From positions 1 to 55,435 of IMG/VR virus record IMGVR_UViG_3300019880_000002: a stretch of 55,435 bases of DNA; one strand, given 5' to 3'. How positions within the stretch are numbered: the first letter of the stretch is position 1; each line of letters opens with the position of its first letter. This document shows positions 15,986 through 55,435 of the stretch, piece after piece. A program made the translations under genes and the position numbers. The notes beneath the pieces are model-generated. The model ran no database searches and was not told the origin of the DNA. It worked only from the letters and a program-made list of their open reading frames with translations. This DNA is from a virus (taxonomy: Duplodnaviria; Caudoviricetes).

Positions 15986-17485
15986 TCAGAACCGGCCAAG
16001 GAGTTCCGACTGGAAGAACGAGGAGGCGCTACTGTCGAAGACAGAATCGCTAGCTCTTACAAGGTCTTCCAGGTTATAGATTTCGCTCAGCTTTGCTGTT
16101 GCACCGAGCTTGAAGATGTGCATAAAAGCATACCGGATCGCGTCAAGCGCATGGTTGTCGTGCTGCCTTGCGTCTTCACGGACGTTTCGGAGTTGCTTAC
16201 CCATGTCGGGTGCCCGGTAGTTGTTGAACTCTCGAATGGTATTCCTACAGCTATGGTCGACGAACAGCCACGGCTCAAGGATAGGGGTTCCGTATTCATC
16301 GAGAATTCCTACTTCCCTCGTCTGGAGGAAGCCCTTAACGAGCTCTACACCTTCACGCCATCCGGATTGGGAGCTGTGACGACCTTGGTACTCGTTACTA
16401 ACCTTCGCCGTGCCTGACTTGGATCGAGGATCCGCATAGCAAGGCGCAAGCGTGGTGGAAACTTCCAGTACTGATTCTGGGCTCGCTGCGTCCCCAAAGG
16501 CAAGGTCGATCTTCCAACCAGCAGGATTCGGCCTCGCCTTGATCTCGCGAATGTGCTGGGAGAGCATCATACCGGCCTTGTAGTGCTCCCGCCATATGTA
16601 CACTCTCCCCCAAGGGTCGACCTGGAACTCGATACACGCAAGCGGGTTCGTAAAGCCCCAGTCGAACGCCATGTAGTTAGGCCAAGCTGGATTGTACACG
16701 TGCTGTCTAACGTGTATAGTCTCTTGAAACTCTTCATAGATCTTACCGACGAAGGCATTGAACATAGCTGCGATCTCCTGATCGAAGAACGCAGGTAGTA
16801 CCGTCGCCTTAATCAGTGCTACTTCCGGGTCGTCAATGCCTCCGGGGTAGACATATGGATTGTCCCAGCTCGGGAACTGCCACGACGCGTAGTCCTTGAA
16901 CACCGGATCCGGACTACGCCCAAGCGCCCAAAGGTCGTACAACCAATTGAAGCCCTCAGGAGTAGTAGGAAAAGTAGCCCATCCCTTTGCATCCGCAAGC
17001 GCCGGTCGAATAAATCGCTCCCACGTATCCTTGCGGTGCTTGGCAGCTTCCGACATGATAGCCCCGTTGAGCTTCTCGCCAACAAGGTTTTCAGGATGGT
17101 CTGCTGAGCGGCACTCAATCCTTGTCTGCCACGGGAACTCGATCCACATCTCGCCGCCGCGCTTGGAGTACGCCTTCTTAACACGCTTATCCAACCCTAG
17201 CTTCTGACCGATAATCAAGTCGTCCCAGATGACCCGAAACTCTTTTTCGGCCAGGTCGTACGTAGGTCCGACGATCCAGAATCGGGATTTTGGCAAAAAC
17301 AACTCCGCCCCACAGTCTCGGCCCGCCATGTGCGACTTCCCGAATCGCCGCCCGCAACAAGGAACACGGAAGCGACTCGGGGAGTCATGGAAGAGCTTCT
17401 GCTTGGGGTGTGGTACATACCCCACTAGGTCGAAGTACTTCTGCTTGGATAGCATGAGATTACGTACGATCCCGGAATCGTCCAA
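15986..17485 (-). CDS. terL: Terminase large subunit
   Basis: PHPKQ, Walker A CGRRFGKS, MSEAA, PTTPEG, nuclease DWGFTNP and HALDAIRY. Confidence 0.95.
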   Translation of the reverse strand: MDDSGIVRNLMLSKQKYFDLVGYVPHPKQKLFHDSPSRFRVPCCGRRFGKSHMAGRDCGAELFLPKSRFWIVGPTYDLAEKEFRVIWDDLIIGQKLGLDKRVKKAYSKRGGEMWIEFPWQTRIECRSADHPENLVGEKLNGAIMSEAAKHRKDTWERFIRPALADAKGWATFPTTPEGFNWLYDLWALGRSPDPVFKDYASWQFPSWDNPYVYPGGIDDPEVALIKATVLPAFFDQEIAAMFNAFVGKIYEEFQETIHVRQHVYNPAWPNYMAFDWGFTNPLACIEFQVDPWGRVYIWREHYKAGMMLSQHIREIKARPNPAGWKIDLAFGDAASPESVLEVSTTLAPCYADPRSKSGTAKVSNEYQGRHSSQSGWREGVELVKGFLQTREVGILDEYGTPILEPWLFVDHSCRNTIREFNNYRAPDMGKQLRNVREDARQHDNHALDAIRYAFMHIFKLGATAKLSEIYNLEDLVRASDSVFDSSASSFFQSELLGRF

Positions 17486-18408: not shown

Positions 18409-18942
18409 TCAGGTCCTCTTGAAGTAGCGGTTAGTCTGCTTCATGCCCGTAGCCTTAATCAACGGCCCAGCCGCCGAACCCGGCTGCCCGAGCACCTGAT
18501 TCGTGTGGAACGAGGTGCCGGCAATTCGGTTGTCCGAGGTCGGCAAGGCTCCAGCTGGCGTTACTGCGCCTGTATCTACAAACGAGGTAGCGCCAAGCGC
18601 GGATAGCCCGATGAACAGCTCGGACCCTCCAACTCGGCCATACACTGCGTACTGTGTTCCAGCCGCTCCCGGCAGTGTAATGGTACAGATATTCGTCGTA
18701 CCACCGCCGACTACCGTGGTCCCAGCTGTGCTTGCCAGCGATTCTGCACCACCCTTCACAGCGCTAATCCGGTACGAGTACGTCGCAGCCGTCAGCGTGC
18801 CTCCAGCGCCCGAGTTACCGACCACGGGGGCGGACGGAGCAGCACCGGTAGCAGCCTGCGTCCCAGTCACCAGTATGTTGGCAGTCTCACCCTTGGCATT
18901 GCGGTACTGTACTGTATCACCGATATTCGCAGTCTGTAGCAT
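18409..18942 (-). CDS. Virion protein with an FN3-like domain paralogous to the tail tube insert
   Basis: GGTLTAATYSYRISA...YAVYGR...SEL...TSFVDTG...PAGALP aligns by eye with the tail tube insert. Confidence 0.75.
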   Translation of the reverse strand: MLQTANIGDTVQYRNAKGETANILVTGTQAATGAAPSAPVVGNSGAGGTLTAATYSYRISAVKGGAESLASTAGTTVVGGGTTNICTITLPGAAGTQYAVYGRVGGSELFIGLSALGATSFVDTGAVTPAGALPTSDNRIAGTSFHTNQVLGQPGSAAGPLIKATGMKQTNRYFKRT

Positions 18943-18998
18943 CTCAACTCCCGTCGCCTTCGGCGGCCCATGTCTTTAGCAATCCCACAGGCCGAACC

Positions 18999-19328
18999 TT
19001 ACCGTCCTTGCATCGGCTCCACATCGTTATCTGCGAGCTGCTTCACAAGCGCCATCAGCAGGTCATCAGCGCCACCTGACGTTGACTTAAAGCCGCCACC
19101 CACTACACCATCGATGATATAGCGCGAGGCCGCAAGCCGAACTTGCTCCGCCAGCGCATGGGCCGAAAGCCAGGCAACAGACTGCGCAGCCATGGGAGCA
19201 GCAGTCATTAGGATCTCACGAGCGAGCTCCTCGTGCGTCAGCTCCGGCCGGACAATCTTCTCGGTCTGAATCGCAGCGAGAGCCTCGTCAGAGCACCACT
19301 CCTGCGAATTACGATCAATGCGGTTCAT
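18999..19328 (-). CDS. Probable terminase small subunit
   Basis: First gene of the late arm; helical 109 aa with an EQVRLAASRYII motif. Confidence 0.6.
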   Translation of the reverse strand: MNRIDRNSQEWCSDEALAAIQTEKIVRPELTHEELAREILMTAAPMAAQSVAWLSAHALAEQVRLAASRYIIDGVVGGGFKSTSGGADDLLMALVKQLADNDVEPMQGR

Positions 19329-19357
19329 CTTTCCCCCATCTCTGGTGCTTCACCTTG

Positions 19358-19406
19358 ATTATAGCATCTCCGTAGTAAAAAGGCCAACAATTCATTATAT
19401 CTCAGT
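19358..19406 (-). promoter_or_regulatory. Putative late promoter for the terS operon
   Basis: TTGGCC-N18-TATAAT with the 25-nt box shared with 10137-10161. Confidence 0.75.
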
Positions 19407-19458
19407 ATTCCGCTATATCCGAGCCTCCTGTCTCTCACAACTTAGCTTAAGAATCATT

Positions 19459-19553
19459 ATAGACTCTAAATAGACTTGTTAGATCTCTACTTAGACTAAA
19501 TGAATCTCCGGTTTAGCTATAGAGGGAGCCTTGTTTGTCTCTTTAGAGTCTAT
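19459..19553. repeat. AT-rich palindromic element, copy 2 of 4
   Basis: ATAGACTCTAAA / TTTAGAGTCTAT 12-bp inverted repeat; shares a 15-mer with copy 1. Confidence 0.75.
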
Positions 19554-19660
19554 TATTCAATGTCATCCATTCCAAATTTAACTTCGCTGCGTCTTAGTTC
19601 CACGGACCGGTAAAGATCTTGAAAATTATGGTATAATATAGTTATAAGTACAGAAACAGC

Positions 19661-20070
19661 CGGCCAAATCCGGACATATCCGGACATTAGCCGATAAAGC
19701 TGGGGAAATCCGTACTTATCCGTATATTGACAACTAAATAGGGACAAGCTCCGATATATCGGGCTATACCAGAGGATATCCGGACCAATCACGACATAAG
19801 GGGATATACCATGGTAAAGCGGACTATAGCCGAGATTTTCGTAGTACCTACGGATAAAGCACCGTATCTACGGGTAATGCGGGAAGAAGGCGGATATACC
19901 AGGAAAAACCGGCTTAACGCATGGCCTTACGCGATATTCTGTGGTAAAGCGGTACATAAGCAGATTTAGTACGACAAAGTAAGGTTTTGCCGGATATCCT
20001 CTAGTATAGCCCGATATTGACGGACATAGACCGACATGGTCGGATATGTCATGGCTGATGATGATATATA
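19661..20070. repeat. Degenerate 10-bp tandem array (about 41 units, consensus near CGGAYATANC)
   Basis: Units at 19671, 19681, 19751, 19801, 19851, 19891, 19991, 20021 and 20041 are all in the same mod-10 register. Confidence 0.85.
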
Positions 20071-20164
20071 CCCCCATCTCCGTATAAGGATACGGATATG
20101 CCGCTACAGAGCAAAATGTCGGGCAATCGACACTTATATATCGCTACAGCCCCATATCGGAAAA

Positions 20165-20195
20165 GATCACGAGTACGTCCTAAGGGGACCCTACG
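20165..20195. repeat. 31-bp inverted repeat, left arm
   Basis: Reverse complement matches 20561-20591 at 28/31. Confidence 0.9.
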
Positions 20196-20232
20196 GAAGG
20201 TACGCATACACACCTAACGGAAGGTCAAGATC

Positions 20233-20532
20233 ATGGATATTCAGGCGTATGTCACAGAGGACGCTTACACCGGGTACGCTATCCACAAGGTAGTGAACCG
20301 GATCCTCCAGGACGCAGGCAGGGAGCCTATCCGTCCGCAGATGATGTACAATTACCTCCGGAACGGTCTCATCGTGAAGGGTGAGAAGATCTTCGGAGAG
20401 ACCCTCAGGACCGTAACGAACGAGGAAGTTGTAACGTTCCTCGTACGGTACATTGACAGGAACAAGATCGAGGTTGGGTCGGTTACTAACCCGGACCAGC
20501 TGGAACTCGATCTTGCGAGTGTTACAGAGTAG
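20233..20532 (+). CDS. Putative HTH DNA-binding protein
   Basis: IRPQMMYNYLRNG resembles VPPQVVYSYIKNN of 27532..28026. Confidence 0.7.
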   Translation: MDIQAYVTEDAYTGYAIHKVVNRILQDAGREPIRPQMMYNYLRNGLIVKGEKIFGETLRTVTNEEVVTFLVRYIDRNKIEVGSVTNPDQLELDLASVTE

Positions 20533-20560
20533 TACCCGAACGAACCAGTAAGTAAGGAAA

Positions 20561-20591
20561 CGTAGGGTCCTCTCAGAACGTACTCGTGATC
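20561..20591. repeat. 31-bp inverted repeat, right arm
   Basis: Pairs with 20165-20195. Confidence 0.9.
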
Positions 20592-21230
20592 CAGGAAGGC
20601 CACCCTAAGAAGGTAGTCTTTCTTGGGATACTCAGTATCTAGTGCCGGTTGTACCGGGTCCCAGACCGGACCCTGCCTTGAAGAGGATCTTGGTCGCTCG
20701 GGATCTTGAGCCTATAGTCTCGCGGGGGGACTATACAGGTCCATATCAAATTACGCTTCTCGTGCGATCTCGGGCATTCCGCACAATAGGTCCGTACCCC
20801 CTGGGTCTGACTTCACAAAATCCACACGGGCAGTCGGGCCGTGGGGCGAAGGGTCGGGGGAGGCGTGGCATGAGGACGTCGCAGGGAGTGCTAGGGCGGC
20901 GCAGGGGGTCCTAACCCGGGGCTAAAACCAGCATGGGTTGATCGTTTAGGATTTAAACGATAGATCAAACGCAATTAGCTCTCTTGGTTCAACTAACCCT
21001 CACTGTTTTCTCTCGGGTCGAATTACATGTTCCTCTCCGTTCGTATACTTTTCTTTACTATATATTACTATAAACCAATATTCTATTAGTAATATACATA
21101 CAAGCGGGAGATCCATCAACCAACCCAGTGTCCGGATCGCAACCTTCCTGCGACATTTAGACCTAGCGCTAGGAGGATTTAGACCTTTATGGAATGTTTT
21201 TCCGCATCTCATATCGGTCTAAATAGCCCC

Positions 21231-38046: not shown

Positions 38047-40317
38047 ATGACCGCACCGGCTACGCCGGAAGAACAACGCCTTCGTCAGGAAATGTTCTTC
38101 AAGCTGCTGTTCGGAACAGACGTAGAAGGGTACGTTTGTCTTGCCTACATGAATATGCTAGGTGGCAAAAAGAACTTTACGGAGGAGTTCTTCATGTACC
38201 CTGATGAGCTCCCCCGAATGATTCACAGCATAGCTCAAAACCGTTCCAGCAACAATGTGTACTTCTGTCCGCAGATACTCAAAACTAACCAACGTGCGCC
38301 TGGACAAAAGAGCGCAAGAACGAAAGACAATATCAAAGTTTGCACGGCAGCTTGGGCAGACCTTGACACATGCAATCCATCACTGCTCCTCGTTCCCCCA
38401 TCCATAAGCTTAGAAACGTCGGACAACCGATTCCACGCCCTGTGGGTGTTTGACAAGCCAGTTGCCCCCGAAATCGCTGAACAGATCAGTAAGAACATTG
38501 CATACCACCATGTCAATGATGGAGCTGACAAAGGCGGTTGGGACTTAACCCAATTACTTCGTGTACCGGCAACATTCAATCTAAAGTACCCCCTGCCCTA
38601 TGAAGTACGAATTGCGAAAATCTCACGCGATCAAGTTCTGCTTGAAGAGTTCAGCGTGTATCGTGAGTCGAGGATCAACACACTTACTCACGATCCAATG
38701 CCTGAGGTTCTTCCGACAGATACTGGAAATGACATCCTGCAGAAGTATCGTAGGTCGATCAATTCCATCGTGTTCAGCATTCATAGTCAAGTACCTGGTG
38801 ATGTAGAAGAGGAAGGTGGTTGGAGCAAACCTCTTTGGCAACTTCAAATGCTTTGCTTTGAGGCAGGAATGTCTCGAGAGGAAGTATTCATTGTAGCCTC
38901 AGATGCTGCATGCAACAAGTACAAAAGAGATGGTAAGCACCCACGCCTTTTATGGGACGAAGTATGTCGGGCGTATCTCACGACGGTTGAAAAGCTTAAC
39001 ATTCTGGTACCTGAAACGGAAAAGCAATCGCCGCTGATAACGTCCGAGGAACTTAAGTCGTTGGAGGGTTATGAAACGTTTGTAGAAAGGTACATCCAAT
39101 GGGCAAGTACCCTTGGGGACGCGGCGAAAGCATACCACCAAGCCGGCGCGCTTATGATCCTGTCCTCTTTGTTGGCTGGAACGATTCGCTTGCCGACGTC
39201 GTTCGGCGTTATCATGCCGAATCTGTGGTTCATGCTCCTAGCGGACACGACTCTGACACGAAAATCGACTGCTATGGACATAGCGATGGACATGCTGGAC
39301 GCAGTGGACGACAACGTGCTGCTCGCCACAGATGGGTCCCTCGAAGGTCTTATGCAGTCATTAGAGATACGACCAGGCAAGCCATCGATGTTCCTGCGCG
39401 ACGAGTTTTCCGGGCTTATCGAGGCCATGACCCGAAAAGACTACTACGCTGGTATGGCCGAAGCACTTACAAAACTATACGACGGCAAGACAATGAAAAG
39501 AGTACTAAAACGTGAAACAGTAACGGTTAGGGAACCATGTCTTCTAATTTTTGCAGGAGGGATCAAAACAAGGGTCCAATCACTCCTGACACTGGACCAT
39601 GTGTCTTCTGGTTTCGTTCCGAGGTTTTTGTTCTTGACTGCGGAGTCAGATGTCTCTACCTTGCAACCTTTAGGTCCACCCACCCCGGAGAACCTGGAGG
39701 GCCGACAAGAACTGATCGAGGAACTGGAAGAGCTGAGGGATAGATACATCGTCACCCATGAAGTCATTGTTAAGGGTAACGTCGTTGATATCTCCGAGGC
39801 AAGGTGGGATGCCAAGCTAACTCCTGAAGCTTGGCAAAGGTACAATCAGCTCGAAGCTACTCTGTTGTACTCAGGTGTTAATAGTGATCAACCGGACATT
39901 ATGACACCTGTGTATGACCGACTAGCCAAGTCAATCTTGAAGGTAGCCGTACTCATTGCAGCAACAAGGCCACAAGAGGAACTCGTGGTCGTCGAGATAG
40001 AAGACCTACTGCAAGCCATCATGTACGGCGAAGGCTGGAGAACATATGCTACCGAGATCGTAAATGGTATCGGGCGCTCCGCAAACGAGATTCTACTCCA
40101 GCGCGTCTTCAAGAGTATTCGAAAGCACCCTGGAATTGCTAGGTCGGTACTAATGCAATGGTACCACCTAGAAGCTAGACAAGCCGACATCATCTTTGGT
40201 ACGCTTGAACAACGAGGACTTATCCTGGCGACCAAGATGAACAGAACGTTCGTATACGAAGCAGCTGGGAGGCTGAAGTTCAATGACCCAAAAGCCCTTA
40301 GCCCTAGCCGTACTTAG
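38047..40317 (+). CDS. RepB-like primase fused to a DUF3987-type helicase domain
   Basis: WADLD, ETSDNRFHALW, LLRVP; C-terminal LTRKST, RDEFS, SGFVPRF. Confidence 0.8.
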   Translation: MTAPATPEEQRLRQEMFFKLLFGTDVEGYVCLAYMNMLGGKKNFTEEFFMYPDELPRMIHSIAQNRSSNNVYFCPQILKTNQRAPGQKSARTKDNIKVCTAAWADLDTCNPSLLLVPPSISLETSDNRFHALWVFDKPVAPEIAEQISKNIAYHHVNDGADKGGWDLTQLLRVPATFNLKYPLPYEVRIAKISRDQVLLEEFSVYRESRINTLTHDPMPEVLPTDTGNDILQKYRRSINSIVFSIHSQVPGDVEEEGGWSKPLWQLQMLCFEAGMSREEVFIVASDAACNKYKRDGKHPRLLWDEVCRAYLTTVEKLNILVPETEKQSPLITSEELKSLEGYETFVERYIQWASTLGDAAKAYHQAGALMILSSLLAGTIRLPTSFGVIMPNLWFMLLADTTLTRKSTAMDIAMDMLDAVDDNVLLATDGSLEGLMQSLEIRPGKPSMFLRDEFSGLIEAMTRKDYYAGMAEALTKLYDGKTMKRVLKRETVTVREPCLLIFAGGIKTRVQSLLTLDHVSSGFVPRFLFLTAESDVSTLQPLGPPTPENLEGRQELIEELEELRDRYIVTHEVIVKGNVVDISEARWDAKLTPEAWQRYNQLEATLLYSGVNSDQPDIMTPVYDRLAKSILKVAVLIAATRPQEELVVVEIEDLLQAIMYGEGWRTYATEIVNGIGRSANEILLQRVFKSIRKHPGIARSVLMQWYHLEARQADIIFGTLEQRGLILATKMNRTFVYEAAGRLKFNDPKALSPSRT

Positions 40318-41218
40318 CGGCGGGCTCGACTCCACTACGATGGTGTACGAGCTTATCGAACAGGGCTACCAAGTTGACTGCGTCTCGTTCAACTACGGGC
40401 AGCGTCACAAGAAGGAACTGAAGTTTGCAGCATCGACCTGTGCGATGTTGAATCTCAAGCACGACACCGTCGATCTATCGGGATTGACACACCTCATCTC
40501 GAACTCGGCACTCACCTCAGGACGTGCAGAGACTCCAAGTGAGGAGTTCAACAACGATTTCAACCAGCTTATCGACGTGCCTGAGGGTCACTACGCTGAA
40601 GATACTATGGCAGCTACAGTCGTACCAAATCGAAACATGATTATGATCTCCATCGCTGCTGGCATCGCTGTGAATCGTCAGGCGAAGACGATCGGTGTTG
40701 GAGTACATTCCGGAGACCACTTCGTCTATCCTGATTGTCGTCCGGAGTTCATCTTCGCTGCAGGGCAAGCCATCATCATGGGCAACATGGGCTTCCATAA
40801 CTTCGACATCGAGTTCGATCCTGAGGACCCTAAGTACGTGGATCTCGTTGTGCAGGGTTGGACGCGTATGGCGAAGCCTTTAACGACACCTTTCATGGAA
40901 TCGTCGAAGGCTGATATTGCCTTCAGGGCGCTCGAGCTTGGCGTTCCGCTCTTCATGACGTGGAGCTGCTATAAGGGTGGCGACAATCATTGTGGACGTT
41001 GTGGCACGTGTGTCGAGCGTCTCGAAGCAATTGACGAGGCCCAGAAGCGATGGGTTTGGGAGAAGCCAGGTATGAGTGTGCCCGTTGACCAAACGGTGTA
41101 CGATGACGAAGAGTACTGGCAGGTTGTCGTTCATGAGGCGAAGAAGGCAACTGCCGAAGAAGAAGAAGAAGAAGAAGAAGATGAAGGCTTCATGGATAAT
41201 CACTCCGAGGTATACTAA
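40283..41218 (+). CDS. queC: 7-cyano-7-deazaguanine synthase
   Basis: LSGGLDS, FNYGQRH, VPNRN, YPDCRPEF, TWSCY..HCGRCGTC. Confidence 0.97.
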   Translation: MTQKPLALAVLSGGLDSTTMVYELIEQGYQVDCVSFNYGQRHKKELKFAASTCAMLNLKHDTVDLSGLTHLISNSALTSGRAETPSEEFNNDFNQLIDVPEGHYAEDTMAATVVPNRNMIMISIAAGIAVNRQAKTIGVGVHSGDHFVYPDCRPEFIFAAGQAIIMGNMGFHNFDIEFDPEDPKYVDLVVQGWTRMAKPLTTPFMESSKADIAFRALELGVPLFMTWSCYKGGDNHCGRCGTCVERLEAIDEAQKRWVWEKPGMSVPVDQTVYDDEEYWQVVVHEAKKATAEEEEEEEEDEGFMDNHSEVY

Positions 41219-41955
41219 TGGTATGGATCAACGAGATCTTCGGACCAACAATCCAAGGTGAAGGATCCGCAGCAGGTAGACACTGCATGTTCATTCGTGT
41301 TGCGGATTGCAACCTAGAATGTTCCTGGTGTGATACAGCTTACACCTGGGCGTTCACTGCATCCAAGGCAGGCGCAACCGAAAGCGGACGGCTTTACGAT
41401 AAGGCTAGTAATCGCTACGTGATGATGTCATCTGAGGTTATTGACCGCCTACGCAAGCTATGGGATGTTAAGAGGCATCCGACCACAATCGTCATTTCTG
41501 GTGGCGAGCCTCTAATGCAGGCTCGTGACCTAGTTCCTATTATACAGGAGCTGAGCCAATGGGGTAACCAGATTCACATCGAAACGGCTGGCACACTCTT
41601 CTCACCTACCGCATTCGATTGCTGGGTAACACAATACAACGTATCGCCCAAGCTTATGAACAGTGGGAATTTACTTTCGAAGCGACGTAAAATCGAAGTG
41701 CTTCAAGACTTCGCAGAGAAGCCGCACGCATGGTTCAAGTTCGTTGTGCAGGATACTCCTGACTTTGGGGAAATCGATGAGCTAGTGGAGATGCTCAACA
41801 TCAATCCGAATCGAGTCATGGTTATGCCGGAAGGTGTAACTGCAGAAAGAAACATCGAAGTCGCACGTCGAATTGCCACACATGCTGTTAGTCGAGGCTA
41901 TGGACTTTCGTTCCGTACGCACATCCTGCTATGGGAATCTACAAGAGGGAAGTAA
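41218..41955 (+). CDS. queE: 7-carboxy-7-deazaguanine synthase (radical SAM)
   Basis: EIFGPTIQGEG, CNLECSWCDT, SGGEP, IETAG, SPKL. Confidence 0.97.
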   Translation: MVWINEIFGPTIQGEGSAAGRHCMFIRVADCNLECSWCDTAYTWAFTASKAGATESGRLYDKASNRYVMMSSEVIDRLRKLWDVKRHPTTIVISGGEPLMQARDLVPIIQELSQWGNQIHIETAGTLFSPTAFDCWVTQYNVSPKLMNSGNLLSKRRKIEVLQDFAEKPHAWFKFVVQDTPDFGEIDELVEMLNINPNRVMVMPEGVTAERNIEVARRIATHAVSRGYGLSFRTHILLWESTRGK

Positions 41956-41956
41956 A

Positions 41957-42307
41957 ATGGGAATGCATGGAAGCAACATTTTCCTGGATGATGGCCCGGG
42001 CGATAGTAGTTACCTCGCTAACACTCTGGAAGCAATTGTTCCAATCGAGTATCGTGTTGAGGTGTACAACGGATCAGCAGAGCCAGTCTTGACCCTAAGG
42101 ACGTGGGGCGGATGGAACATCGAGGGTTCATTCCTCTGTGTTCATGACGTGAATGGTTTGAAGGAAGCTCACATCATCGCCGAGGACGTGGAATACATCA
42201 AGACAGTCGAAGTTGCTGAGTACATGGCAGCCAAAGAAGACAAGCTAGCCATCATTCCTGGCGACAACAACTTCCTCAGTGCTACTGAGCAGATGGAGGT
42301 ACAGTGA
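41957..42307 (+). CDS. Hypothetical protein within the que cluster
   Basis: 116 aa, tightly coupled to queE and queD. Confidence 0.7.
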   Translation: MGMHGSNIFLDDGPGDSSYLANTLEAIVPIEYRVEVYNGSAEPVLTLRTWGGWNIEGSFLCVHDVNGLKEAHIIAEDVEYIKTVEVAEYMAAKEDKLAIIPGDNNFLSATEQMEVQ

Positions 42308-42759
42308 ATAGCTTCAGAGCAGGACTCTTCGTAAGACACAACGCGGAGATTGCACATCGTCTCTTGTTGTTGCCTGGCAAGTGTCAGCAAATCCATGGAC
42401 ACTCACTCGATGTCGAACTGAGCATCGCTGGACACATCGATGCAAATGGTATTCTAGCTGGTTTGGACTTCTCGAACGTGAAGAGTGTCTTCCGGGATTA
42501 CCTCGATACGATGTTCGACCACCAACTTCACTTGAACGCTGATGATCCATGGGCAAACATCCTGCATGCAGAAGATGGCGATGTAATGCTGATCAATACG
42601 ATGGGAGGGCTGCCAGGTCTTCGTACATGGCCTGGAGATCCAACCACTGAAAACTTCGCAAAGTGGATGTGTGAACACATGCACGAGAAGTTCGGATTGC
42701 CTGTCAAGATCGCCATCATCGAAACCCAAAGCAACGGTGCAGAATACGAGTTGGGATAA
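42304..42759 (+). CDS. queD: 6-carboxy-5,6,7,8-tetrahydropterin synthase
   Basis: AHRL, CQQIHGHS, DF, FDH, PTTENFA, ET. Confidence 0.95.
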   Translation: MNSFRAGLFVRHNAEIAHRLLLLPGKCQQIHGHSLDVELSIAGHIDANGILAGLDFSNVKSVFRDYLDTMFDHQLHLNADDPWANILHAEDGDVMLINTMGGLPGLRTWPGDPTTENFAKWMCEHMHEKFGLPVKIAIIETQSNGAEYELG

Positions 42760-43094
42760 TGGCCAAGAGAAATGGAAAGCAAAGTCGATTCTCACTTAGT
42801 GATCGACTTGCATCGATGGCCGAAAAGGCTGAAATCCGGCGCATGAAGAAGGAAGGCGCTAGCAGGGAAGAGATTGCACAAGAGCACCGATGGACGCCAG
42901 TACCTAACCGTAAGCACCTCCGAAGTGTGGGCATCAACATCACTCACTCAGCTTCGATGTACGGACGGCTTGTTCGCTACCGTCTTACTCCATGTTCCCT
43001 CCAAACGTCCGTTGCGATCCACACCATAGGATCTGATGGCAATACCAAGAAGTTCATTGTGCCTCGTGATCGATACGAAAACAAGGACGCCTAA
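42759..43094 (+). CDS. Hypothetical basic protein within the que cluster
   Basis: TAATG overlaps on both sides. Confidence 0.7.
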   Translation: MAKRNGKQSRFSLSDRLASMAEKAEIRRMKKEGASREEIAQEHRWTPVPNRKHLRSVGINITHSASMYGRLVRYRLTPCSLQTSVAIHTIGSDGNTKKFIVPRDRYENKDA

Positions 43095-43756
43095 TGCCAG
43101 GCGAGTCTGTAGTACCAGAAGAGTTCAAGGATATATTGAAAAGGCTTGGTGCAGATCTAGTGAAGCAGAATCCTAACATGTTAGGCTTCAAAGCCTTGGC
43201 CGATCCGGAGAAGGAGTCGATCGAAGCTGCAGAGGTTCTTCTTCGTACTGCAGCTGGCCTCGACGTGAATGACATGCATGGCAAGGACACACCAACGCGC
43301 TTCGTTCACATGTTGAAGGAGCTTACAGAGCCTCTTCCGATCAAGTGGAAGACGTTCCCGAACGATGGAATGGACGAGATGATCATCGTCCGCAACATTC
43401 CATTCGTTTCACTTTGTAATCACCACGTCATTCCTTTCATTGGAAAGGCTGACATCGGCTACGTTCCGGACGAGTCTGTAGCAGGCTTGAGCAAGTTTGC
43501 CCGAGTCGTACACCACTTCTCCAAGGCACTTCAAGTTCAAGAACGACTGACACAACAGATTGCCAACTTCCTTGAAGAGAACCTCAAGCCTAGAGGGGTA
43601 GCTGTTGTTATGGAAGCCGAACACCTCTGTATGACGATTCGAGGTGTACAGACACCAGGTACTAAAACGTATACGGCAGTCATGTCTGGTGTATACAATG
43701 ATCACGCTCGTACTGCAAAAGCCGAGTTTTTGGCAAGGCTGAATGGCGGACACTAA
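43094..43756 (+). CDS. folE: GTP cyclohydrolase I
   Basis: TPTR, SLCNHH, GLSKFAR, QVQERLT, HLCMTIRG. Confidence 0.97.
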   Translation: MPGESVVPEEFKDILKRLGADLVKQNPNMLGFKALADPEKESIEAAEVLLRTAAGLDVNDMHGKDTPTRFVHMLKELTEPLPIKWKTFPNDGMDEMIIVRNIPFVSLCNHHVIPFIGKADIGYVPDESVAGLSKFARVVHHFSKALQVQERLTQQIANFLEENLKPRGVAVVMEAEHLCMTIRGVQTPGTKTYTAVMSGVYNDHARTAKAEFLARLNGGH

Positions 43757-44124
43757 TGCCTGACATAACTGACGACTTCAAGCGGCAGGCTGACGAAGAG
43801 CACATGACCATTCGTGGATCGGCTAAGGCTGAAGAAGCAGCACTGTCCTTCGCACAAATAATCGCAGACCTAAGCGTTGAGTATGACGAGATGTCTATAA
43901 CTCGTCATGGTCTAGGCGCAGAGAAGTATGGTCCAGGAAAGTTCCTGGTCGTCGATACCATCCAGGAAGCACTAGAAGAGATTGTCGACCTTGGTAACTA
44001 CGTAAGGTACACCTTCATCAAGCTCCGACTCCTCCAGGAATCCATTGCACAGTCCTTGCCACCGGAAGGACTTGAGACAGGATTCATCAAGGCCAAGACG
44101 GCCACGTCAGTAAAGGAAAAGTAG
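43756..44124 (+). CDS. MazG-like all-alpha NTP pyrophosphatase
   Basis: GAEKYG...EALEEIVDLGNY (ExxEExxD) motif. Confidence 0.65.
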   Translation: MPDITDDFKRQADEEHMTIRGSAKAEEAALSFAQIIADLSVEYDEMSITRHGLGAEKYGPGKFLVVDTIQEALEEIVDLGNYVRYTFIKLRLLQESIAQSLPPEGLETGFIKAKTATSVKEK

Positions 44125-44879
44125 TGCGTGCAGCTTTAATTCCCCCGAAAGGCTTTGAGCATACGGCACTCGAGAGTGACATCCACCTCGTGCTACCACT
44201 TCCCCCACTGCTCAAGCGTCCAGACTACATTCGGACGTACGTCGAAGCTCGTAAGCGAGGCGACTACGTCATCCTCGACAATGGATGTGCTGAAGGTCAG
44301 CTCGTTGAAGGCAAGACGCTTCTGGACTTTGCCAAGATAATCAAGGCGCACGAGATTGTCGCTCCCGACATTATGGGCAACGCTGCACAGACGTTGGAAG
44401 CGACAAACATGTTCCTGGATGAGAACCCAGAGGCAGCTGACTACAACATCATGGCTGTACTCCAAGGTGAAACTCCAAACGAGATCCAATTCCTTCTCGA
44501 TCAGTTTGCCAAGCGTGACGAGATCGTTACCATCGGAGTACCGAAGGTACACGTCCAAAAGGCTGACACACCGATCCGTCGAGACATAGTCACAATGATT
44601 CACAGGCATTACCCAGGCAGGTTCCAGATTCACTTGCTCGGACTCAGCAATCAGTTCGCTGACGAAATGCTGGCAATCAAGTTCGATCCAGGCACCGTCC
44701 GCTCGATGGATTCCGCCCAGCCTTACAAGATCACTGAACGTGGCTGGTACATGTCAGCTACCTTTGCTGCTTCAGTAAGGCGGACTGGATACTTCACTTA
44801 CAAGAAGGAGGTCGATCTCAAACTACTGTCTGCGAACATCGCTACGTTCAAGGAATGGGCTGCGAGGCATGAAAGCTGA
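44124..44879 (+). CDS. TGT-fold (DpdA-like) deazaguanine transglycosylase candidate
   Basis: ILDNG, APD, VLQG, IHLLG and RSMDS motifs of the TGT TIM barrel; at the end of the que cluster. Confidence 0.7.
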   Translation: MRAALIPPKGFEHTALESDIHLVLPLPPLLKRPDYIRTYVEARKRGDYVILDNGCAEGQLVEGKTLLDFAKIIKAHEIVAPDIMGNAAQTLEATNMFLDENPEAADYNIMAVLQGETPNEIQFLLDQFAKRDEIVTIGVPKVHVQKADTPIRRDIVTMIHRHYPGRFQIHLLGLSNQFADEMLAIKFDPGTVRSMDSAQPYKITERGWYMSATFAASVRRTGYFTYKKEVDLKLLSANIATFKEWAARHES

Positions 44880-47259
44880 ACATCTTGGCGCTGACTGCTC
44901 TCACTGCCCGCTGCGAGACGGTGCGTATGTGCCTTCACAACACCCACAGGGAGTGCGGGAGCGAGTAGATGGCGAACGTAGATTAGTTGTAGTCGGTGAG
45001 GCTCCTGGATTTTACGAAGGGACCTACGGAAGACCGTTCACAGGACCTAGCGGAAAACTGCTGGATGCTGTCTTAAAGCATCATGGTATAAAACGAAGCG
45101 AGGTACTACTAACCAATGCTTGTCTATGCAGGCCTGAGAATAACGCAACTCCTCCTCGTAGCGCGATTGTTGCATGTAAGAATCGTCTCGCGAGGGAAAT
45201 TCGAGAATTCGAAACTACAGATATCGTTGCACTTGGTGGGACCGCAGGAACTCTTCTGGTTGACGATCCGGGCACAATTACCACGCTGCGAGTTGGGCCG
45301 CCTAAACTTGGCGCAAGGTTTCTCAATGCGCCGGAGGGGCCTGATAATACTATCCGAGTTATTCCGACTTGGCACCCGGCGTACTGTCTGCGAAATGCAG
45401 ATGCGTTCCCGGCCCTCGTATCCGACATTGGAAAACTGAAGGAGAGCAGTCGTGAGCCTTGGAGTGAACCTCAATGGCGAAGCTTTGACGATCCTGATCA
45501 GGCGCTCGCCGTCATCGCCGAACTGGGAGAGCTTGAAGGCCCTCTCGTCATTGATATTGAAGTCGGCATTGAAAAAGACGTTGCCGGAGACGATCACCCG
45601 AACAACTATTCTCTCCTCTGCGTGGGAATTGCTTACGCAAGGCGACGAGCAGTGGTTCTGGGTGAGCGTGCACTTGAAGACAGTACAGTGGTCGATGAAC
45701 TGCGGAAACTCTTCCGCGGAAAACGACTCATCGCCCACAATGGTAAATTTGATCTTGCCGGACTCTATCCAAGACTCGGCGCCTTGGAACTCTGGTTCGA
45801 CACCATGCTTGCCAGCTACTGCCTCGATGAACGACCAGGCAACCATGGTCTTAAGGTACTAGCTGTCGAAAAGCTTGGAGCTCCAAAGTACGACGACGAG
45901 ATCAGGCGCTTCATCCCGAAGCGTGGTAACTATGGTGATATCCCGCGCCCTATCCTTTACAAGTACAATGCAATGGATGTTGCTTGTACTTGGGACTTGT
46001 ACGAGATGTTCACGGAAGCAATGGAACGTGAAGATGTTCGTATGGTCCACGACTTCCTGATCAAGGCTTCTAACCAGCTCATGTACCTCGAGCTGAATGG
46101 AATCCACATTGACAAGGAAGCCATGGCTAAGCTTGATGCAGAGTACATGGGACGTCTCGAGCAACTCGAAACCGAGATGAACGAAGTCATCCAGAAGTCA
46201 ACAGGGCACCTGGACGATGGTAAGTGGCTCGGCATTAACCCAAGATCTCCAAAGCAAGTAAAGGGTTACCTGGAGACGCAGGGGGTCAACGTTGCATCTA
46301 CGAACGAAGAAACACTCACAGCGCTGCTCGCCAGATTGCCTGTCGGGAGTGCCCGAAGAGAGTTTGTCCGAGTTCTTCTTAGGTATCGACGCCAGCACAA
46401 GCTCTACAGTACATATATCGCTGGAATCCGTAAACGACTATACCGCGGACGTGTTTACACTACTTACATGCTCCACGGTACTACGAGCGGACGGCTGGCA
46501 TCTCGAAACCCGAATCTCCAAAACATTGTCCGTGATAAGGAGATCCGACGGCAGTTTGGTGTCACTCGACCAGACAACGTTCTGATCCAGTGTGACTACG
46601 CTAACGCGGAAGCACGTGTCATGGCTACGCTAGCCCAAGATGATTATCTTAAAACCATCCTCAGTAACCAAACACCAGGATATAAGTTCTTCAACGAACT
46701 ATCCGACCAGTTGTACGGTGCAGGCAAATGGGGCAAGGAGGAGTACATTCGTACGAAGGCATTCTTCTACGGCATTGCGTATGGACGTGAGTCGTGGTCG
46801 ATTGCAAGAGAGTACGGATTGTCAGCAAGAGAAGGTGAACGCCAGTATCGAGAGTTCCTGAATCTATTCCCTGGCGTGATGCAATGGCAAGAAGATATTA
46901 AGCACCATGTCTCGTCAGGTAAGCCTTTGGTCACACCATTCGGAAGGCGCAGACGGTTCTGGCTAATCACTGATAGTAATCGGAAGGATGTGATGAATGA
47001 AGCGCTGTCCTATTTGCCGCAAAGTACCGCAAGCGACATTTGCCTTAGCGCCCTTATACGTGTGCGTCCAATGTTGCGTGGTCTGGGTTTCCTCCGACTT
47101 ACTATTCACGACGCGCTCGTTGTCGAGTGCGCTGAGAGTCGTGCCGAGGAAGTATCAACACTTCTTAGTTCGGTCATGGTCGATGAGGGAAGACGGTACA
47201 CCGATTACATCCCCTTTCCCGTCGATAGTTCTATAGGCAAGAGTTGGGGTGACCTGTAA
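44869..47259 (+). CDS. Family A DNA polymerase with an N-terminal family-4 uracil-DNA glycosylase domain
   Basis: CSHCPL, GEAPG, HPAY (UDG); DIE, HNGKFD, YNAMD (exonuclease); SGRLAS, PNLQNI, DYANAE, KAFFYGIAYG, IHD (polymerase). Confidence 0.95.
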   Translation: MKAEHLGADCSHCPLRDGAYVPSQHPQGVRERVDGERRLVVVGEAPGFYEGTYGRPFTGPSGKLLDAVLKHHGIKRSEVLLTNACLCRPENNATPPRSAIVACKNRLAREIREFETTDIVALGGTAGTLLVDDPGTITTLRVGPPKLGARFLNAPEGPDNTIRVIPTWHPAYCLRNADAFPALVSDIGKLKESSREPWSEPQWRSFDDPDQALAVIAELGELEGPLVIDIEVGIEKDVAGDDHPNNYSLLCVGIAYARRRAVVLGERALEDSTVVDELRKLFRGKRLIAHNGKFDLAGLYPRLGALELWFDTMLASYCLDERPGNHGLKVLAVEKLGAPKYDDEIRRFIPKRGNYGDIPRPILYKYNAMDVACTWDLYEMFTEAMEREDVRMVHDFLIKASNQLMYLELNGIHIDKEAMAKLDAEYMGRLEQLETEMNEVIQKSTGHLDDGKWLGINPRSPKQVKGYLETQGVNVASTNEETLTALLARLPVGSARREFVRVLLRYRRQHKLYSTYIAGIRKRLYRGRVYTTYMLHGTTSGRLASRNPNLQNIVRDKEIRRQFGVTRPDNVLIQCDYANAEARVMATLAQDDYLKTILSNQTPGYKFFNELSDQLYGAGKWGKEEYIRTKAFFYGIAYGRESWSIAREYGLSAREGERQYREFLNLFPGVMQWQEDIKHHVSSGKPLVTPFGRRRRFWLITDSNRKDVMNEALSYLPQSTASDICLSALIRVRPMLRGLGFLRLTIHDALVVECAESRAEEVSTLLSSVMVDEGRRYTDYIPFPVDSSIGKSWGDL

Positions 47260-55429: not shown

Positions 55430-55435
55430 ACGAAC

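Follow-up and report, generated by a model that had tools for sequence, protein, structure and literature searches.

Organization of the divergent early locus

The window analysed here, a stretch of 55,435 nucleotides from an uncultured soil phage, carries an array of around 460 bases with a regular 10-bp pattern, located straight after an early promoter. The original prediction had placed this array at the point where the two gene arms diverge, and the layout of the locus agrees with that: a leftward promoter-like site (19387->19358) lies on one side and the rightward genes start at 20233 on the other. The leftward structural arm opens with a gene (18999..19328, minus strand) that lies around 330 bp from the array, encodes a protein of 109 amino acids and is conserved in relatives with and without the array. 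It had earlier been labelled terS. The position of the gene fits this label, as does one weak PHROG match (phrog_2538 'terminase small subunit', E=0.011, residues 33-73), but Pfam yielded nothing for it and the ESM Atlas gave hypothetical viral clusters only, and the label is best considered tentative. The leftward promoter (19358..19387, minus strand) is of the sigma-70-like type, with TTGGCC, an 18-nt spacer, TATAAT and a TG before the -10, and showed 10 of 12 consensus matches in a consensus scan. It is overlapped by a 30-bp block (19378-19408) that is letter-for-letter common to co-occurring relatives and recurs in the loci of relatives.

Between the two promoters there is a cluster of short repeats of the TAGAC/GTCTAA type (19440..19560), which includes an inverted pair (19456-19475 / 19537-19556) of 20 nt with 90% complementarity. 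This motif cluster appears in relatives both with and without the array. As a candidate for a conserved cis site (regulator, cos or pac) it may be preferable to the array. Downstream of it lies a conserved promoter-like block, GATCTTGAAAA-N6-TATAATATAGTTA (19615..19644, plus strand), with an extended -10 (TGgTATAAT) whose TATAAT at 19632-19637 is the one noted originally as preceding the array; the array begins directly after the block. An exact-pattern scan recovered the block in IMG/VR and in metagenome contigs. It was not called by a simple -35/-10 scan because there is no good -35 at 16-18 nt, and, judged by its sequence, it probably functions as a promoter. At all array-bearing loci the periodic stretch begins at offset 0 downstream of the block, with an upstream P10 of at most 2.4. 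The array occupies the transcribed leader of the early operon and starts at the expected transcription start. A location within transcribed DNA is also what an RNA-level or transcription-coupled role would predict, a point that weighs against a function read on the DNA. Directly downstream of the array follows the first conserved early gene (20233..20532, plus strand), encoding 99 amino acids with an invariant RPQMMYNY motif.

A phased pattern with a period of 10.0 bp

A direct check of the nine decamers listed in the original prediction confirmed that they all occur at their reported positions and in one mod-10 register. Over the 41 units the column majorities were C20, G23, G30, A24, T23, A33, T25, A26, G16/T14 and C23. 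The four-base Fourier power in the array peaked at 16.2-16.3 for a period of 9.98-10.0 bp, whereas 500 dinucleotide-preserving shuffles reached a mean of 0.77 at 10.0 bp (sd 0.45, max 2.86) and a highest power of 4.52 at any period. In 200-bp sliding windows over the whole 55-kb stretch the ten best all began at 19551-20001, the next-best window beyond the array reached 2.44 (median 0.58, 99th percentile 2.30), and nothing comparable to the array was found. An exact integer period is not expected from the helical repeat of 10.2-10.5 bp alone, which speaks against a reading at the DNA level.

Written in two classes (W, A or T; S, C or G), the array holds its phase within around ±0.5 bp from 19645 to ~20110, thus over roughly 46 units and slightly longer than the ~410 bp proposed before. 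The units alternate between a W block of ~6 bp and an S block of ~4 bp (C-C-G-G type), which are half a turn apart, with TAkCCGGATA as the consensus. The physical premise behind the proposal, alternating W and S blocks with a period under 10.5 bp, thus holds. The information content is 4.9 bits/unit in the window and 3.4-4.9 bits/unit across arrays. The output of Tandem Repeats Finder was limited to 2.8 copies at 19660-19687 plus a pair of 20 bp at 20006-20044, and on this output a conventional tandem repeat or satellite, with copies at least ~70% alike, was rejected. What is repeated in the array is a pattern rather than a copied unit.

Mini-genes and bracketing inverted repeats

The array had been described as non-coding, which holds only in part. 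Inside it lies a mini-ORF of 52 codons (19811..19969, plus strand) with a Shine-Dalgarno-like AAGGGG upstream and a homologue in the nearest relative. The homologue in L010/L033 shows 67% amino acid identity, and given that the differences are spread 10:10:14 over the codon positions, this family is likely, though not proven, to be coding. Related arrays contain two to three clearly coding mini-genes. None of the mini-proteins could be assigned to a PHROG or Pfam family at E<=0.01.

The mini-ORF is situated wholly within the loop of an inverted repeat, of which the left arm (19756..19783, plus strand, 28 nt) is 96% complementary to the right arm (19990..20017, plus strand, 28 nt). Out of 58,653 window pairs compared within the array, this arm pair scored highest; the mean was 6.9 Watson-Crick matches of 28. 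A second pair (19673-19687 / 20036-20050; 15 nt, 87%) is nested around it. When the stem pairs were counted directly between the window and L010, and not from the MAFFT alignment, 19 were unchanged, none showed a one-sided change and seven (7/28) showed two-sided changes. The same organization recurs in 11 related arrays, where 23 of the 24 long inverted repeats enclose one mini-gene of 48-72 codons led by a Shine-Dalgarno sequence. The arms of these 24 pairs measure 25-40 nt, have 84-91% complementarity and are 180-380 nt apart, and neighbouring modules abut. The window holds one such module and relatives up to three or four, with arm sequences that differ between modules. In the outer stem of the family-A module, compared over three sequences, two-sided changes affected 8 of 31 pairs.

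Arms with compensatory changes point to RNA stems as a second layer of information in the array. The RNA 19645-20240 folds at -196 kcal/mol as compared to -155±6.4 in 100 shuffles (z = -6.4), and the Rfam 15 covariance models gave no matches at E<=1 on either strand of 19300-20300. The compensatory arms show that RNA structure is under selection and the sense strand is A-biased (see below), two observations that count against a function exerted on DNA.

Presence, loss and divergence of the array in relatives

Array-bearing genomes possess one array each, which always begins at the promoter-like block and never upstream. Its length varies across the group from 0.4 to 1.5 kb, or about 40-150 units. 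The phase is held within ~±0.5-1 bp over 480 bp in the window, 540 bp in L033, ~950 bp in L040 and ~1080 bp in L043; in the distal stretches of the L036 and L037 arrays the phase drifts, which speaks against a reading on DNA, and the L036 array includes some 9-bp units and never 11-bp units. The unit reads AAtCnGGnnA in relatives and TAkCCGGATA in the window. The S block varies by lineage (CCGG, CGG, TCG/GCG), while the W/S pattern and the period persist. On the sense strand of the related arrays the three W positions have A:T ratios of ~65:30, 80:10 and 70:11. Candidate functions connected to particular words were dropped. A decoy for CCGG restriction/methylase systems was rejected, since there is no avoidance of CCGG elsewhere (observed/expected 0.98-1.22) and the array of G009 has 0 CCGG; a sponge of the CsrA type based on GGA and a role of CCGG-N6-CCGG mini-hairpins were both rejected as GGA and CCGG are missing from related arrays.

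Sequence identity of the arrays among relatives is 54-73%; alignments under ~65% identity are unreliable, and indel lists from them were not used. As compared to the nearest relative, both internal indels of the array are exactly 10 bp, and among close pairs the indels were exactly 10, 10, 10, 10 and 40 bp. An indel of 298 nt between L182 and L205 represents the gain or loss of a whole module.

The array is missing from 10 of the 23 group loci in metagenomes (around half of the wider group), and the same runs also contain a relative without the array. Two genomes, G002 and G003, have no array, yet are nested inside the array-bearing clade (quick IQ-TREE tree, SH-aLRT at least 99). They retain TerL (81% and 78% identity), the 109-aa first gene (59-60%), the promoter block, the primase-helicase (72% and 70%), PolA (77% and 74%), SNF2, the exonuclease and Sak4, the replication proteins ranging from 64 to 79%. 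Going by these genomes, the array is dispensable: it was lost in a nested lineage that keeps terminase, replication genes and promoter block. Since the mini-gene cassettes and the array are either both there or both missing, the role of the array may concern the mini-genes rather than the control of the promoter.

A megablast of 18900-21000 against cultured phages gave no match, and neither did a sensitive blastn of the 1.1-kb array of L043. A sensitive blastn of 19330-20232 yielded only a 29-bp word, identical in six Caulobacter phage records, where it is part of a cluster at ~10-bp spacing. The genes adjoining this cluster in CcrRogue had no Pfam family. A shared 22-mer is present twice in one Dehalococcoidia MAG, both times between genes. 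On the evidence of these words, the clusters in Caulobacter phages and Dehalococcoidia look like small operator-type arrays. The closest cultured relative by TerL is at most 37% identical, and a TerL scan of genome contigs of 185,579 species identified no relative.

The pattern is maintained through coding sequence

In all 14 embedded ORFs analysed (14/14), 0 of 2000 codon-order shuffles reached the observed 10-bp amplitude and the phase was that of the flanks; for the mini-ORF at 19811-19969 the 10-bp signal was likewise reached by 0 of 2000 codon shuffles. With the phase fixed from the flanks alone, the projection on the W/S code amounted to 0.119, 0.125 and 0.195 (sem ~0.01) at codon positions 1, 2 and 3, respectively, and it was positive at each codon position in 22 of 22 ORFs. 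The third, synonymous positions carry the strongest code, which is therefore selected at the nucleotide level. At the centre of the W block 85-94% of the third positions are A or T, versus 46% in ordinary genes, and in the S block they are C (42-53%) and then G (42-49%). The third-position pattern is nearly reverse-complement symmetric, with an A excess of ~1.5:1. The amplitude inside the ORFs matches that of the flanks, although the homologues go down to 37-67% amino acid identity.

Substitutions show a constraint that depends on the position in the unit. Between the window and L033 they amount to 0.09-0.19 at the core A, T and G, A positions, while of the other six unit positions five show 0.30-0.44 and the sixth 0.26. 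Changes that preserve the W/S class make up 145 of 450 in arrays versus 1963 of 7220 genome-wide (0.32 vs 0.27), a small excess whose weakness counts against the DNA-level reading.

Search for a reader protein

Judging from family resemblance, the 99-aa protein encoded directly behind the array (20233..20532) is a candidate DNA-binding reader. Its family has 653 members at E<=1e-3, and among the best 150 of these, mostly sub-threshold Pfam matches were recovered to DUF1836 (22 members), HTH_17 (11) and MerR (1); the DUF1836 cut-off is exceeded by one family member, P0065. In the ESM Atlas, the clusters closest to the protein consist of small 'MerR family' proteins (0.90). The confident AlphaFold model (pLDDT 88), however, matched EF-hand pairs only, with Z at most 6.4; over the fold searches as a whole, the EF-hand matches of VIA-align stayed at Z<=6.5, within the noise of the tool. 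No winged-helix entry was listed in five fold searches, Foldseek returned nothing below E=0.1, PDB sequence searches with profiles of 19 and 102 sequences gave nothing below E=0.2, and tblastn of the 99-aa protein against phages gave no match. A presence/absence test identified no window protein that is limited to array-bearing genomes. Within the ORFs scanned, none reached the Pfam cut-off for HTH_17, MerR or a histone-like family, and no gene with a histone-fold, HU-like or p6-like product was detected.

A tentative model and its alternatives

The organization described above could be explained by a double-stranded-DNA shape code, read by a protein that coats or wraps the early cassettes and thereby gates early transcription. 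We regard this reading as tentative. The stretch itself is the promoter-proximal, transcribed 'cassette' part of the early operon, on which two layers are superimposed. The first layer, established by the data above, consists of the mini-genes (48-72 codons, led by a Shine-Dalgarno sequence) within inverted arms of 25-40 nt kept complementary through two-sided changes; most simply, these arms would pair over long distances in the RNA and thereby fold, process or stabilise each mini-cistron. The second layer is the 10.0-bp code, which extends over coding and non-coding DNA from around +10 to the last module. It may act in rotational positioning through anisotropic bendability, where a period below 10.5 bp would favour a left-handed path. 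A shape-reading protein might bind once per turn, on one face, uninterrupted over 0.4-1.5 kb, and candidates for it would be a head-to-tail winged-helix filament of the BldC/Xis/Cox/RdfS kind, of phage or host origin, or a nucleoid protein. A coat or solenoid of this kind would extend from the promoter and could gate transcription, by delay or shut-off, in the early cassettes as well as in the rest of the operon downstream.

Considering the fact that the array is found only in transcribed DNA, from the expected transcription start onward, the code could, as the main alternative, be read on the RNA, as A-rich stretches with G/C clamps every 10 nt in the early leader or mRNA. An oligomeric RNA-binding protein that takes up ~10 nt per subunit might be responsible, for which an exact integer period would be a natural ruler, or the mini-cistron RNA might be compact and resistant to RNase or Rho while its stems form. 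The A excess on the sense strand, the covarying long-range stems (two-sided changes in 8/31 and 7/28 pairs), the enclosure of a mini-gene by 23 of 24 inverted repeats and the folding of 19645-20240 (z = -6.4) all agree with this option. We nevertheless consider it rather unlikely. The synonymous constraint is on W versus S and not on a given base, the S block is reverse-complement symmetric and varies in sequence by lineage, and the W/S phase runs unbroken across arms of opposite polarity. In addition, A-form RNA helices have no 10-nt repeat, there is no Rfam match, the low folding energy may merely follow from the near-palindromic units, and we know of no RNA-binding system with a 10-nt ruler. 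Confinement to transcribed DNA and the exact integer period would also suit a transcriptional delay line, made of tandem elemental RNA-polymerase pause sites with a Y-G step every 10 nt. The pause signal is G-10 plus Y-1 G+1 (PMC12288461), and the geometry fits as G-10 and G+1 are exactly 10 nt apart. Matches to G-10/Y-1/G+1 on the sense strand, however, occur at 0.29-0.52 per 10 nt as compared to 0.26-0.38 in ordinary downstream genes, they are equally or more frequent on the antisense strand (18 vs 26 and 35 vs 46, sense versus antisense), and the Y-1 column is weak, with C at only 35-50%. Such a delay line is hardly credible.

Exact indels of 10, 10, 10, 10 and 40 bp in close pairs, the fast evolution of the array (54-73% identity) and the 2.8 near-perfect copies that Tandem Repeats Finder still detects at its 5' end might suggest a functionless relic, in which slippage of 10-bp units gave rise to the mini-genes and arms and the periodicity is decaying. 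If a relic were kept through protein constraint alone, the opposite of a third-position maximum would be seen. The maximum at third positions in 22 of 22 ORFs largely refutes this scenario; with an amplitude in the ORFs that equals the flanks despite 37-67% amino acid identity, position-specific substitution and a phase maintained over ~100 units, we consider it quite improbable. The original prediction suggested a spool for TerS, that is a packaging-initiation (pac/cos) site. Models of DNA wrapped around TerS rings exist, and the first gene of the structural arm, ~330 bp away, has the weak TerS match mentioned above (phrog_2538, E=0.011). This proposal is weakened by G002 and G003, which lack the array and keep the cognate terminase (TerL at 81% and 78%) and the 109-aa gene (59-60%), and by the absence of the array at 10 of 23 metagenome loci. 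Moreover, two promoters and the universally conserved cluster at 19440-19560 lie between the array and the structural arm, and the contigs of relatives end at arbitrary places; a packaging site is very unlikely. An origin scaffold, also suggested originally, would be an iteron array activated by early transcription. The cumulative GC-skew minimum at ~18-20 kb is consistent with this, and transcription-activated phage origins provide a parallel in their position downstream of a strong promoter. The retention of primase-helicase, PolA, SNF2 and Sak4 in the array-less G002 and G003 counts against it, the divergent orientation of the genes accounts equally well for the skew minimum, known iteron sets are far smaller than 40-150 units, and an A/T-rich unwinding element is not evident at the locus. 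We therefore rate an origin as a still fainter prospect than a packaging site. Finally, instead of acting on the phage's own promoter, the array might serve as a DNA decoy or sponge for a host DNA-binding protein; the titrated protein could be a regulator similar to BldC, a xenogeneic silencer or else a sensor in host defence that recognizes phased A/T-CG DNA. It is accessory, of variable presence and 0.4 to 1.5 kb in length, whole modules are gained and lost (e.g. the 298-nt indel of L182 vs L205), and short clusters of the same words are also found in unrelated phages and a bacterial MAG. Proteins like BldC are reported to be common across bacteria (PMC5859096), which also counts for a decoy. 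One array per genome nevertheless offers few sites to an abundant host protein, and titration leaves the abutment to the promoter and the course through the mini-genes unexplained. Furthermore, a host could not be traced through relatives, TerL being at most 37% identical to that of cultured relatives and without relative in the scan of genome contigs. On balance a decoy seems improbable.

Given the W/S premise and the selection at synonymous sites, the protein-wrapping or 'landing array' reading that was put forward originally is still the leading one, although the binding protein it calls for was not found. We infer that the code is read on DNA and by a protein, with transcriptional gating as the presumed outcome. 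A further, somewhat doubtful, formulation would be that of a chromatin-like, phase-locked W/S code that is written into promoter-proximal genes, mostly through synonymous sites, and marks hypervariable early cassettes, with as a novel kind of reader either a phage or host protein that builds a nucleosome-like, left-handed solenoid of 40-150 turns to work as an infection timer, or an RNA or transcribing-complex reader with 10 nt per subunit.

Implications

If the pattern is indeed read on DNA, it would constitute a rotational-positioning code over coding sequence outside eukaryotes and archaea, and a giant relative of the Xis/Cox/BldC operator arrays, ten- to twenty-fold longer. It would then offer a tractable model for the spreading of shape-reading filaments and for transcription gating. 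In the chromatin-like form the code would be a second genetic layer that overlaps protein-coding sequence and is coupled to RNA panhandles around the cassettes; to our knowledge, no phage regulatory system of this form has been described. The data also call for caution in annotation, as codon choice in small phage genes can follow a signal unrelated to the protein, with consequences for gene calling and for dN/dS-type inference on early 'ORFan' genes. The covarying panhandle mini-genes, which come and go as whole units downstream of a single conserved promoter, represent a new early-region architecture, and such a compact cassette system may house host-takeover or anti-defence functions. Both layers can be approached with synthetic DNA, without a known host.

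Comparison with known systems

A described equivalent of the array and mini-gene arrangement was not found in the literature searched. Several systems share part of its properties. Protein p6 of phi29, an abundant early protein, reads periodic bendability, acts as a repressor of an early promoter and forms wraps of several hundred bp. The array would share with it a periodic bendability signal rather than a sequence, but p6 works with a 24-bp (2 x 12) period and a right-handed wrap, at the genome ends. In the nucleosomal and archaeal-histone code, A/T and G/C steps recur at ~10 bp with a half-turn offset, over coding sequence. Both have W and S 5 bp out of phase, a period just under the 10.5-bp solution repeat and writing at synonymous sites. 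The differences are the setting, here that of a bacterial tailed phage in promoter, Shine-Dalgarno sites and gene set, and the strength of the signal, which in the array is exactly 10.0 bp, coherent to ~1 kb and far stronger than genomic nucleosome signals.

The arms of the modules resemble the stems that are cut by RNase III, an enzyme that cleaves long-range stems bracketing rRNA in rRNA operons and also processes the early mRNA of T7. In both cases complementary arms surround one gene and are kept by compensatory change, and the module arms give a duplex of at least 20 bp maintained by covariation, as expected of an RNase III-type processing stem. The T7 sites, however, are local intergenic hairpins, while the stems predicted here would be panhandles around each gene; the rRNA-operon and T7 systems have no 10-nt phased code, and a phage example of RNase III stems that bracket a cistron was not found in the literature searched. 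By analogy only, integron cassette arrays also have a strong promoter followed by variable, promoter-less small-gene modules with imperfect inverted repeats, and whole modules are gained or lost between relatives. Unlike in integrons, there is no integrase or attC-like common site here, and the arms are module-specific and flank both sides of the gene.

A further comparison is with operators of small winged-helix proteins. According to PMC5859096, BldC protomers read AATTXXXX(C), e.g. AATTCGGTC, the bottom strand of the whiI operator contains AATCCGAGC / AATTCGGAC, and BldC filaments assemble on direct repeats that vary in number, with a DNA bend of ~50 degrees per dimer. The MerR-like gp36 of phage D29, according to PMC12266134, binds direct repeats and represses the downstream genes. 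Known arrays of this wHTH type comprise 2-7 units on promoters or att sites, as opposed to ~46-150 units downstream of a promoter and through genes; the BldC crystal sites have a 9-bp period instead of 10.0 bp; and these systems have a winged-helix reader, which could not be shown in this phage. On the other hand, the BldC half-sites AATTCGGAC and AATCCGAGC nearly equal the window word AATCCGGAC. The BldC, Xis, Cox, RdfS and gp36 systems have in common units about one helical turn apart, with an A/T stretch (narrow minor groove) and a C-G contact, and the array likewise has direct repeats around one turn apart with these elements. Their readout is indirect, which allows degenerate sites, and the repeat number is variable, as in the array; promoters are repressed by the filaments, which bend the DNA or wrap it along a left-handed path.

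Periodicity of the array

We found that the alternation of A/T (W) and C/G (S) within the array (window 19645-20110) is periodic far beyond chance. The original prediction had set nine decamers in a single common register, and both their positions and the register are correct. Cutting 41 decamers from position 19661 onwards gives C, G, G, A, T/C, A, T, A, G/T and C as the majority bases of the ten columns; column 6 is A in 33 of the 41, and column 3 is G in 30. The Fourier comparison with shuffled sequences that was proposed along with the prediction gave a peak at 9.98-10.0 bp with a power of 16.2-16.3 (four-base sum), where 500 dinucleotide-preserving shuffles yielded a mean of 0.77 at 10.0 bp (sd 0.45, maximum 2.86) and a maximum of 4.5 over all periods from 2 to 20 bp. 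Among all 200-bp windows of the 55,435 bp, the ten with the highest power begin within 19551-20001; the next best reaches 2.44, and the 99th percentile over the whole window is 2.30. Between 19645 and ~20110 the W/S phase varies by no more than about half a base. Given that Tandem Repeats Finder recovered just 2.8 copies, at the 5' end, and that the information content is 3.4-4.9 bits per unit, the array is a phase-locked pattern and not a series of recognisable copies.

Genomic setting

The phage is siphovirus-like and the record is 85% complete according to the CheckV estimate. The stretch is present in sequencing runs labelled soil metagenome, from which it may originate, and we found no close cultured phage: the best TerL identity was 37% (an Arthrobacter phage) and the best PolA identity 29%. 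The tape-measure gene (1-2478) runs off the start of the record and an open frame at 54635-55435 runs off its end, where the tape measure seems to continue; this gives the record the appearance of an assembly, circularly closed or permuted, that was broken inside this gene. The records of relatives break elsewhere, and several of them are assigned direct terminal repeats.

The leftward structural arm encodes TerL (15986-17485), portal, major head protein and tape measure. The rightward early/replication arm encodes an SNF2 helicase, a PD-(D/E)XK exonuclease, a Sak4-like protein, a DUF3987 primase-helicase and a UDG-PolA fusion, a family-A DNA polymerase with an N-terminal uracil-DNA-glycosylase-superfamily domain (44869-47259). 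In addition, it carries a 7-deazaguanine precursor set, consisting of QueC (40283-41218), a radical-SAM/QueE-like gene (41218-41955), PTPS/QueD (42304-42759) and GTP cyclohydrolase I (43094-43756), the last followed by two unassigned ORFs within the region 40283-44879. This set suggests that the phage DNA contains modified guanines, in which case bulky major-groove groups would be found at the CGG blocks of the array, once per turn.

Between the arms lies a leftward sigma-70-like promoter (19387->19358). Next to it, a 30-bp block (19378-19408) is letter-identical in co-occurring relatives and forms a branching node in the contigs of the run. This block and a cluster of TAGAC/GTCTAA repeats (19440-19560) recur in all relatives, with or without array, and, for a conserved cis site (regulator, cos or pac), are more plausible candidates than the array. 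The array itself begins directly 3' of a conserved promoter-like block, GATCTTGAAAA-N6-TATAATATAGTTA (19615-19644). The word TTGAYAAYTNAATAG(C/G)G (19725-19742) occurs at the same place in relatives, ~70-110 nt past the promoter-like block, and is common to leaders with and without array. Several relatives have G runs (up to ~17) or GGGGGAGGGG words between the array end and the first conserved early gene (L043 11060-11085, L011 3840-3880, L012 3840-3870, L015 3870-3890); the window has neither.

Distribution among relatives

To gather relatives from IMG/VR and from metagenomes, we searched with protein seeds and scanned for exact matches to the promoter-like block. The array follows the block at offset 0 in 7 of 13 IMG/VR rows (the window, L032, L033, L036, L037, L040 and L043); the six rows without it include two unrelated, A/T-rich chance matches (L035 and L041) and the two ends of one contig (L038 and L039). 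Among 51 metagenome loci, some of which are duplicates of IMG/VR contigs, a group-specific GAT precedes the block in 23. In eleven of these an array starts at offset 0 and extends for up to 1475 bp, ten have none and two are too short to tell; no array occurs in the remaining 28 loci, which are unrelated and A/T-rich. Periodic DNA 5' of the block was found in none of the IMG/VR or metagenome loci, the upstream 10-bp Fourier power being at most 2.4 in loci of the group. Within the set of ten whole genomes and the window, every array-bearing genome has exactly one array and the six array-less genomes have none, save for a weak 250-bp patch in G002. The latter genome also shows a mini-array of ~7 GATTT-type units at 10-bp spacing (L013 5380-5450), ~1.3 kb into the early region and just 5' of a second TATAAT-like site.

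In a tree of eight concatenated core proteins (quick IQ-TREE search, SH-aLRT >=99 at the relevant forks) the array-less genomes G002 and G003 are sister to the window and G006, and the other members of the enclosing clade (G008, G009 and the basal G007) all have arrays. The tree requires two changes, which would most simply be one gain and one loss. Both G002 and G003 retain TerL, the 109-aa first gene of the leftward arm (18999-19328), the replication genes, the promoter-like block and the first early gene. An array-less relative co-occurs in the runs of the window; in its contig ~200 nt separate the promoter block from the first early gene. A presence/absence comparison revealed no window protein restricted to array-bearing genomes. 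The array is thus dispensable and, since array-less relatives keep terminase, replication genes and block, it is probably not the sole pac/cos site or origin of the phage; the proposals of a TerS packaging site and of an origin scaffold are thereby disfavoured.

The pattern runs through genes

Small ORFs led by strong Shine-Dalgarno sites are found in the longer arrays (at least five families, 48-72 codons), several with CxxC pairs and none with a match in PHROG or Pfam. Differences between homologues fall 132:116:176 over codon positions 1:2:3 (five families) and cysteines and motifs are conserved, so that the families are, as a set, protein-coding; for the window's own family the ratio of 10:10:14 is not decisive. 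In all 14 embedded ORFs the periodic phase equals that of the flanks, and the 10-bp amplitude was reached by none of 2000 codon-order shuffles each. When the flanks alone defined the phase, projection on the code amounted to 0.119, 0.125 and 0.195 at codon positions 1, 2 and 3 (sem ~0.01), and it was positive at every codon position in 22 of 22 ORFs, which belong to few families and hence are non-independent. At the W-block centre the third codon position is occupied by A in 52-61%, by T in 31-40% and by C or G in at most 15% of cases, and within the S block it is C, then G; the figures for third positions in ordinary genes of the window are 22% A, 24% T, 28% C and 26% G. A relic held by protein constraint alone would show its lowest signal at third positions, so the pattern is under direct maintenance at the nucleotide level.

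The substitution rate varies with unit position from 0.09 to 0.44, and changes that preserve the W/S class are in small excess (145/450 in arrays versus 1963/7220). Indels in arrays tend to be of whole-unit size: both internal indels between the window and L033 are 10 bp, L186 and L201 differ by one of 10 bp, and L182 and L205 by indels of 9, 1, 298, 10 and 40 bp, against one of 1 bp; those between L040 and L184 are 2 and 1 bp. The 298-nt indel between L182 and L205 shows that an entire module was gained or lost.

These modules are delimited by inverted repeats. We recovered 24 pairs in 11 arrays (25-40 nt, 84-91% complementary, loops of 182-379 nt), and 23 of them enclose one whole Shine-Dalgarno-led ORF. 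In successive modules the right arm of one abuts the left arm of the next, and arm sequences vary between modules while complementarity is kept within each pair. In the window, a pair at 19756-19783 and 19990-20017 surrounds the ORF at 19811-19969, and a second pair encloses the first. Comparison of the window stem with that of L010 (28 pairs) showed 19 unchanged pairs, seven two-sided changes and no one-sided ones, with one C·A mismatch retained in both genomes; in one module family from three genomes, 8 of 31 outer-stem pairs had two-sided changes. The simplest reading of these sequences is that the arms form long-range RNA stems, which, judging from their length, may be processed by an RNase III-type enzyme.

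A DNA or an RNA code

The best-supported interpretation is an early cassette region with two layers, in which RNA panhandles surround mini-genes and a nucleotide-level 10-bp W/S code is overlaid on them. Full-text searches of the main articles found no account of such an arrangement. As to how the code is read, the favoured, though tentative, answer is a DNA shape code, recognised by a protein that wraps the DNA or forms filaments on it and that would gate early transcription. The freest sites constrain W versus S and not a particular base, the S block (C, C then G, G) is reverse-complement symmetric, and its sequence shifts between lineages with the pattern kept, all of which argues for DNA; the array of G009 contains no CCGG at all. 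The same holds for the phase, which is unbroken across arms of either polarity, and for the W and S blocks, which sit half a turn apart, as in the classical rule of anisotropic bending.

The main rival, that the code acts at the RNA level, we regard as somewhat less likely. A reader of RNA, or one coupled to transcription, would fit the confinement of the array to transcribed DNA, the A excess on the sense strand and the RNA stems that are demonstrably under selection, as well as the exact integer period, with phase slips by 9-bp units and never by 11-bp ones. The elemental pause signal, as described in PMC12288461, has G-10 and G+1 10 nt apart. Chained elemental pause sites were rejected, since matches to the signal are not enriched relative to ordinary genes and do not favour either strand.

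Similar words elsewhere and known systems

A stretch of 29 bp identical to window 19659-19687 occurs in six Caulobacter phage records (CcrRogue and five related ones). In CcrRogue it belongs to an intergenic cluster of CCGG-N6 words ~10 bp apart (gp056/gp057; L004 2380-2530), which holds four of the nine CCGGACAT copies within ~100 bp and is flanked by genes without a Pfam family. A 22-mer search of the genomes of 185,579 species yielded only two matches, both in an uncultured Dehalococcoidia MAG (contigs L129 and L130), where one ~40-nt element of 4-5 units is found at two intergenic sites, one just 3' of a dnaB-like gene. Near-perfect 10-bp repeats of A-tract and CGG (3-5 copies), often as two opposed runs, were seen in unrelated viral contigs (L092/L117, L065, L100, L119 and L112), one of them between the end of a TerL-like gene and the next gene. 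On the basis of these short clusters the motif class is widespread; what is special here is its giant, gene-spanning form.

A candidate reader of the array is the product of the conserved 99-aa gene just 3' of it (20233-20532). Among the best 150 members of its family, 32 gave recurrent sub-threshold matches to HTH_17, DUF1836 and MerR, and its nearest ESM Atlas neighbours are 'MerR family' clusters (0.90), which is a lead only. The protein model (pLDDT 88) resembles only EF-hand pairs (Z<=6.4), which counts against such a role.

The array unit is close to the sites of head-to-tail winged-helix proteins. According to PMC5859096, BldC recognizes AATTXXXX(C), e.g. AATTCGGTC, and forms a filament on variable numbers of direct repeats by indirect readout, with a bend of ~50 degrees per dimer. 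Left-handed superhelical filaments are described for RdfS and P2 Cox in PMC11963761, where the modelled curvature of RdfS-bound DNA is called 'similar ... to nucleosomal DNA', and PMC12266134 reports that gp36 of phage D29 attaches to direct repeats and represses the genes that lie downstream.
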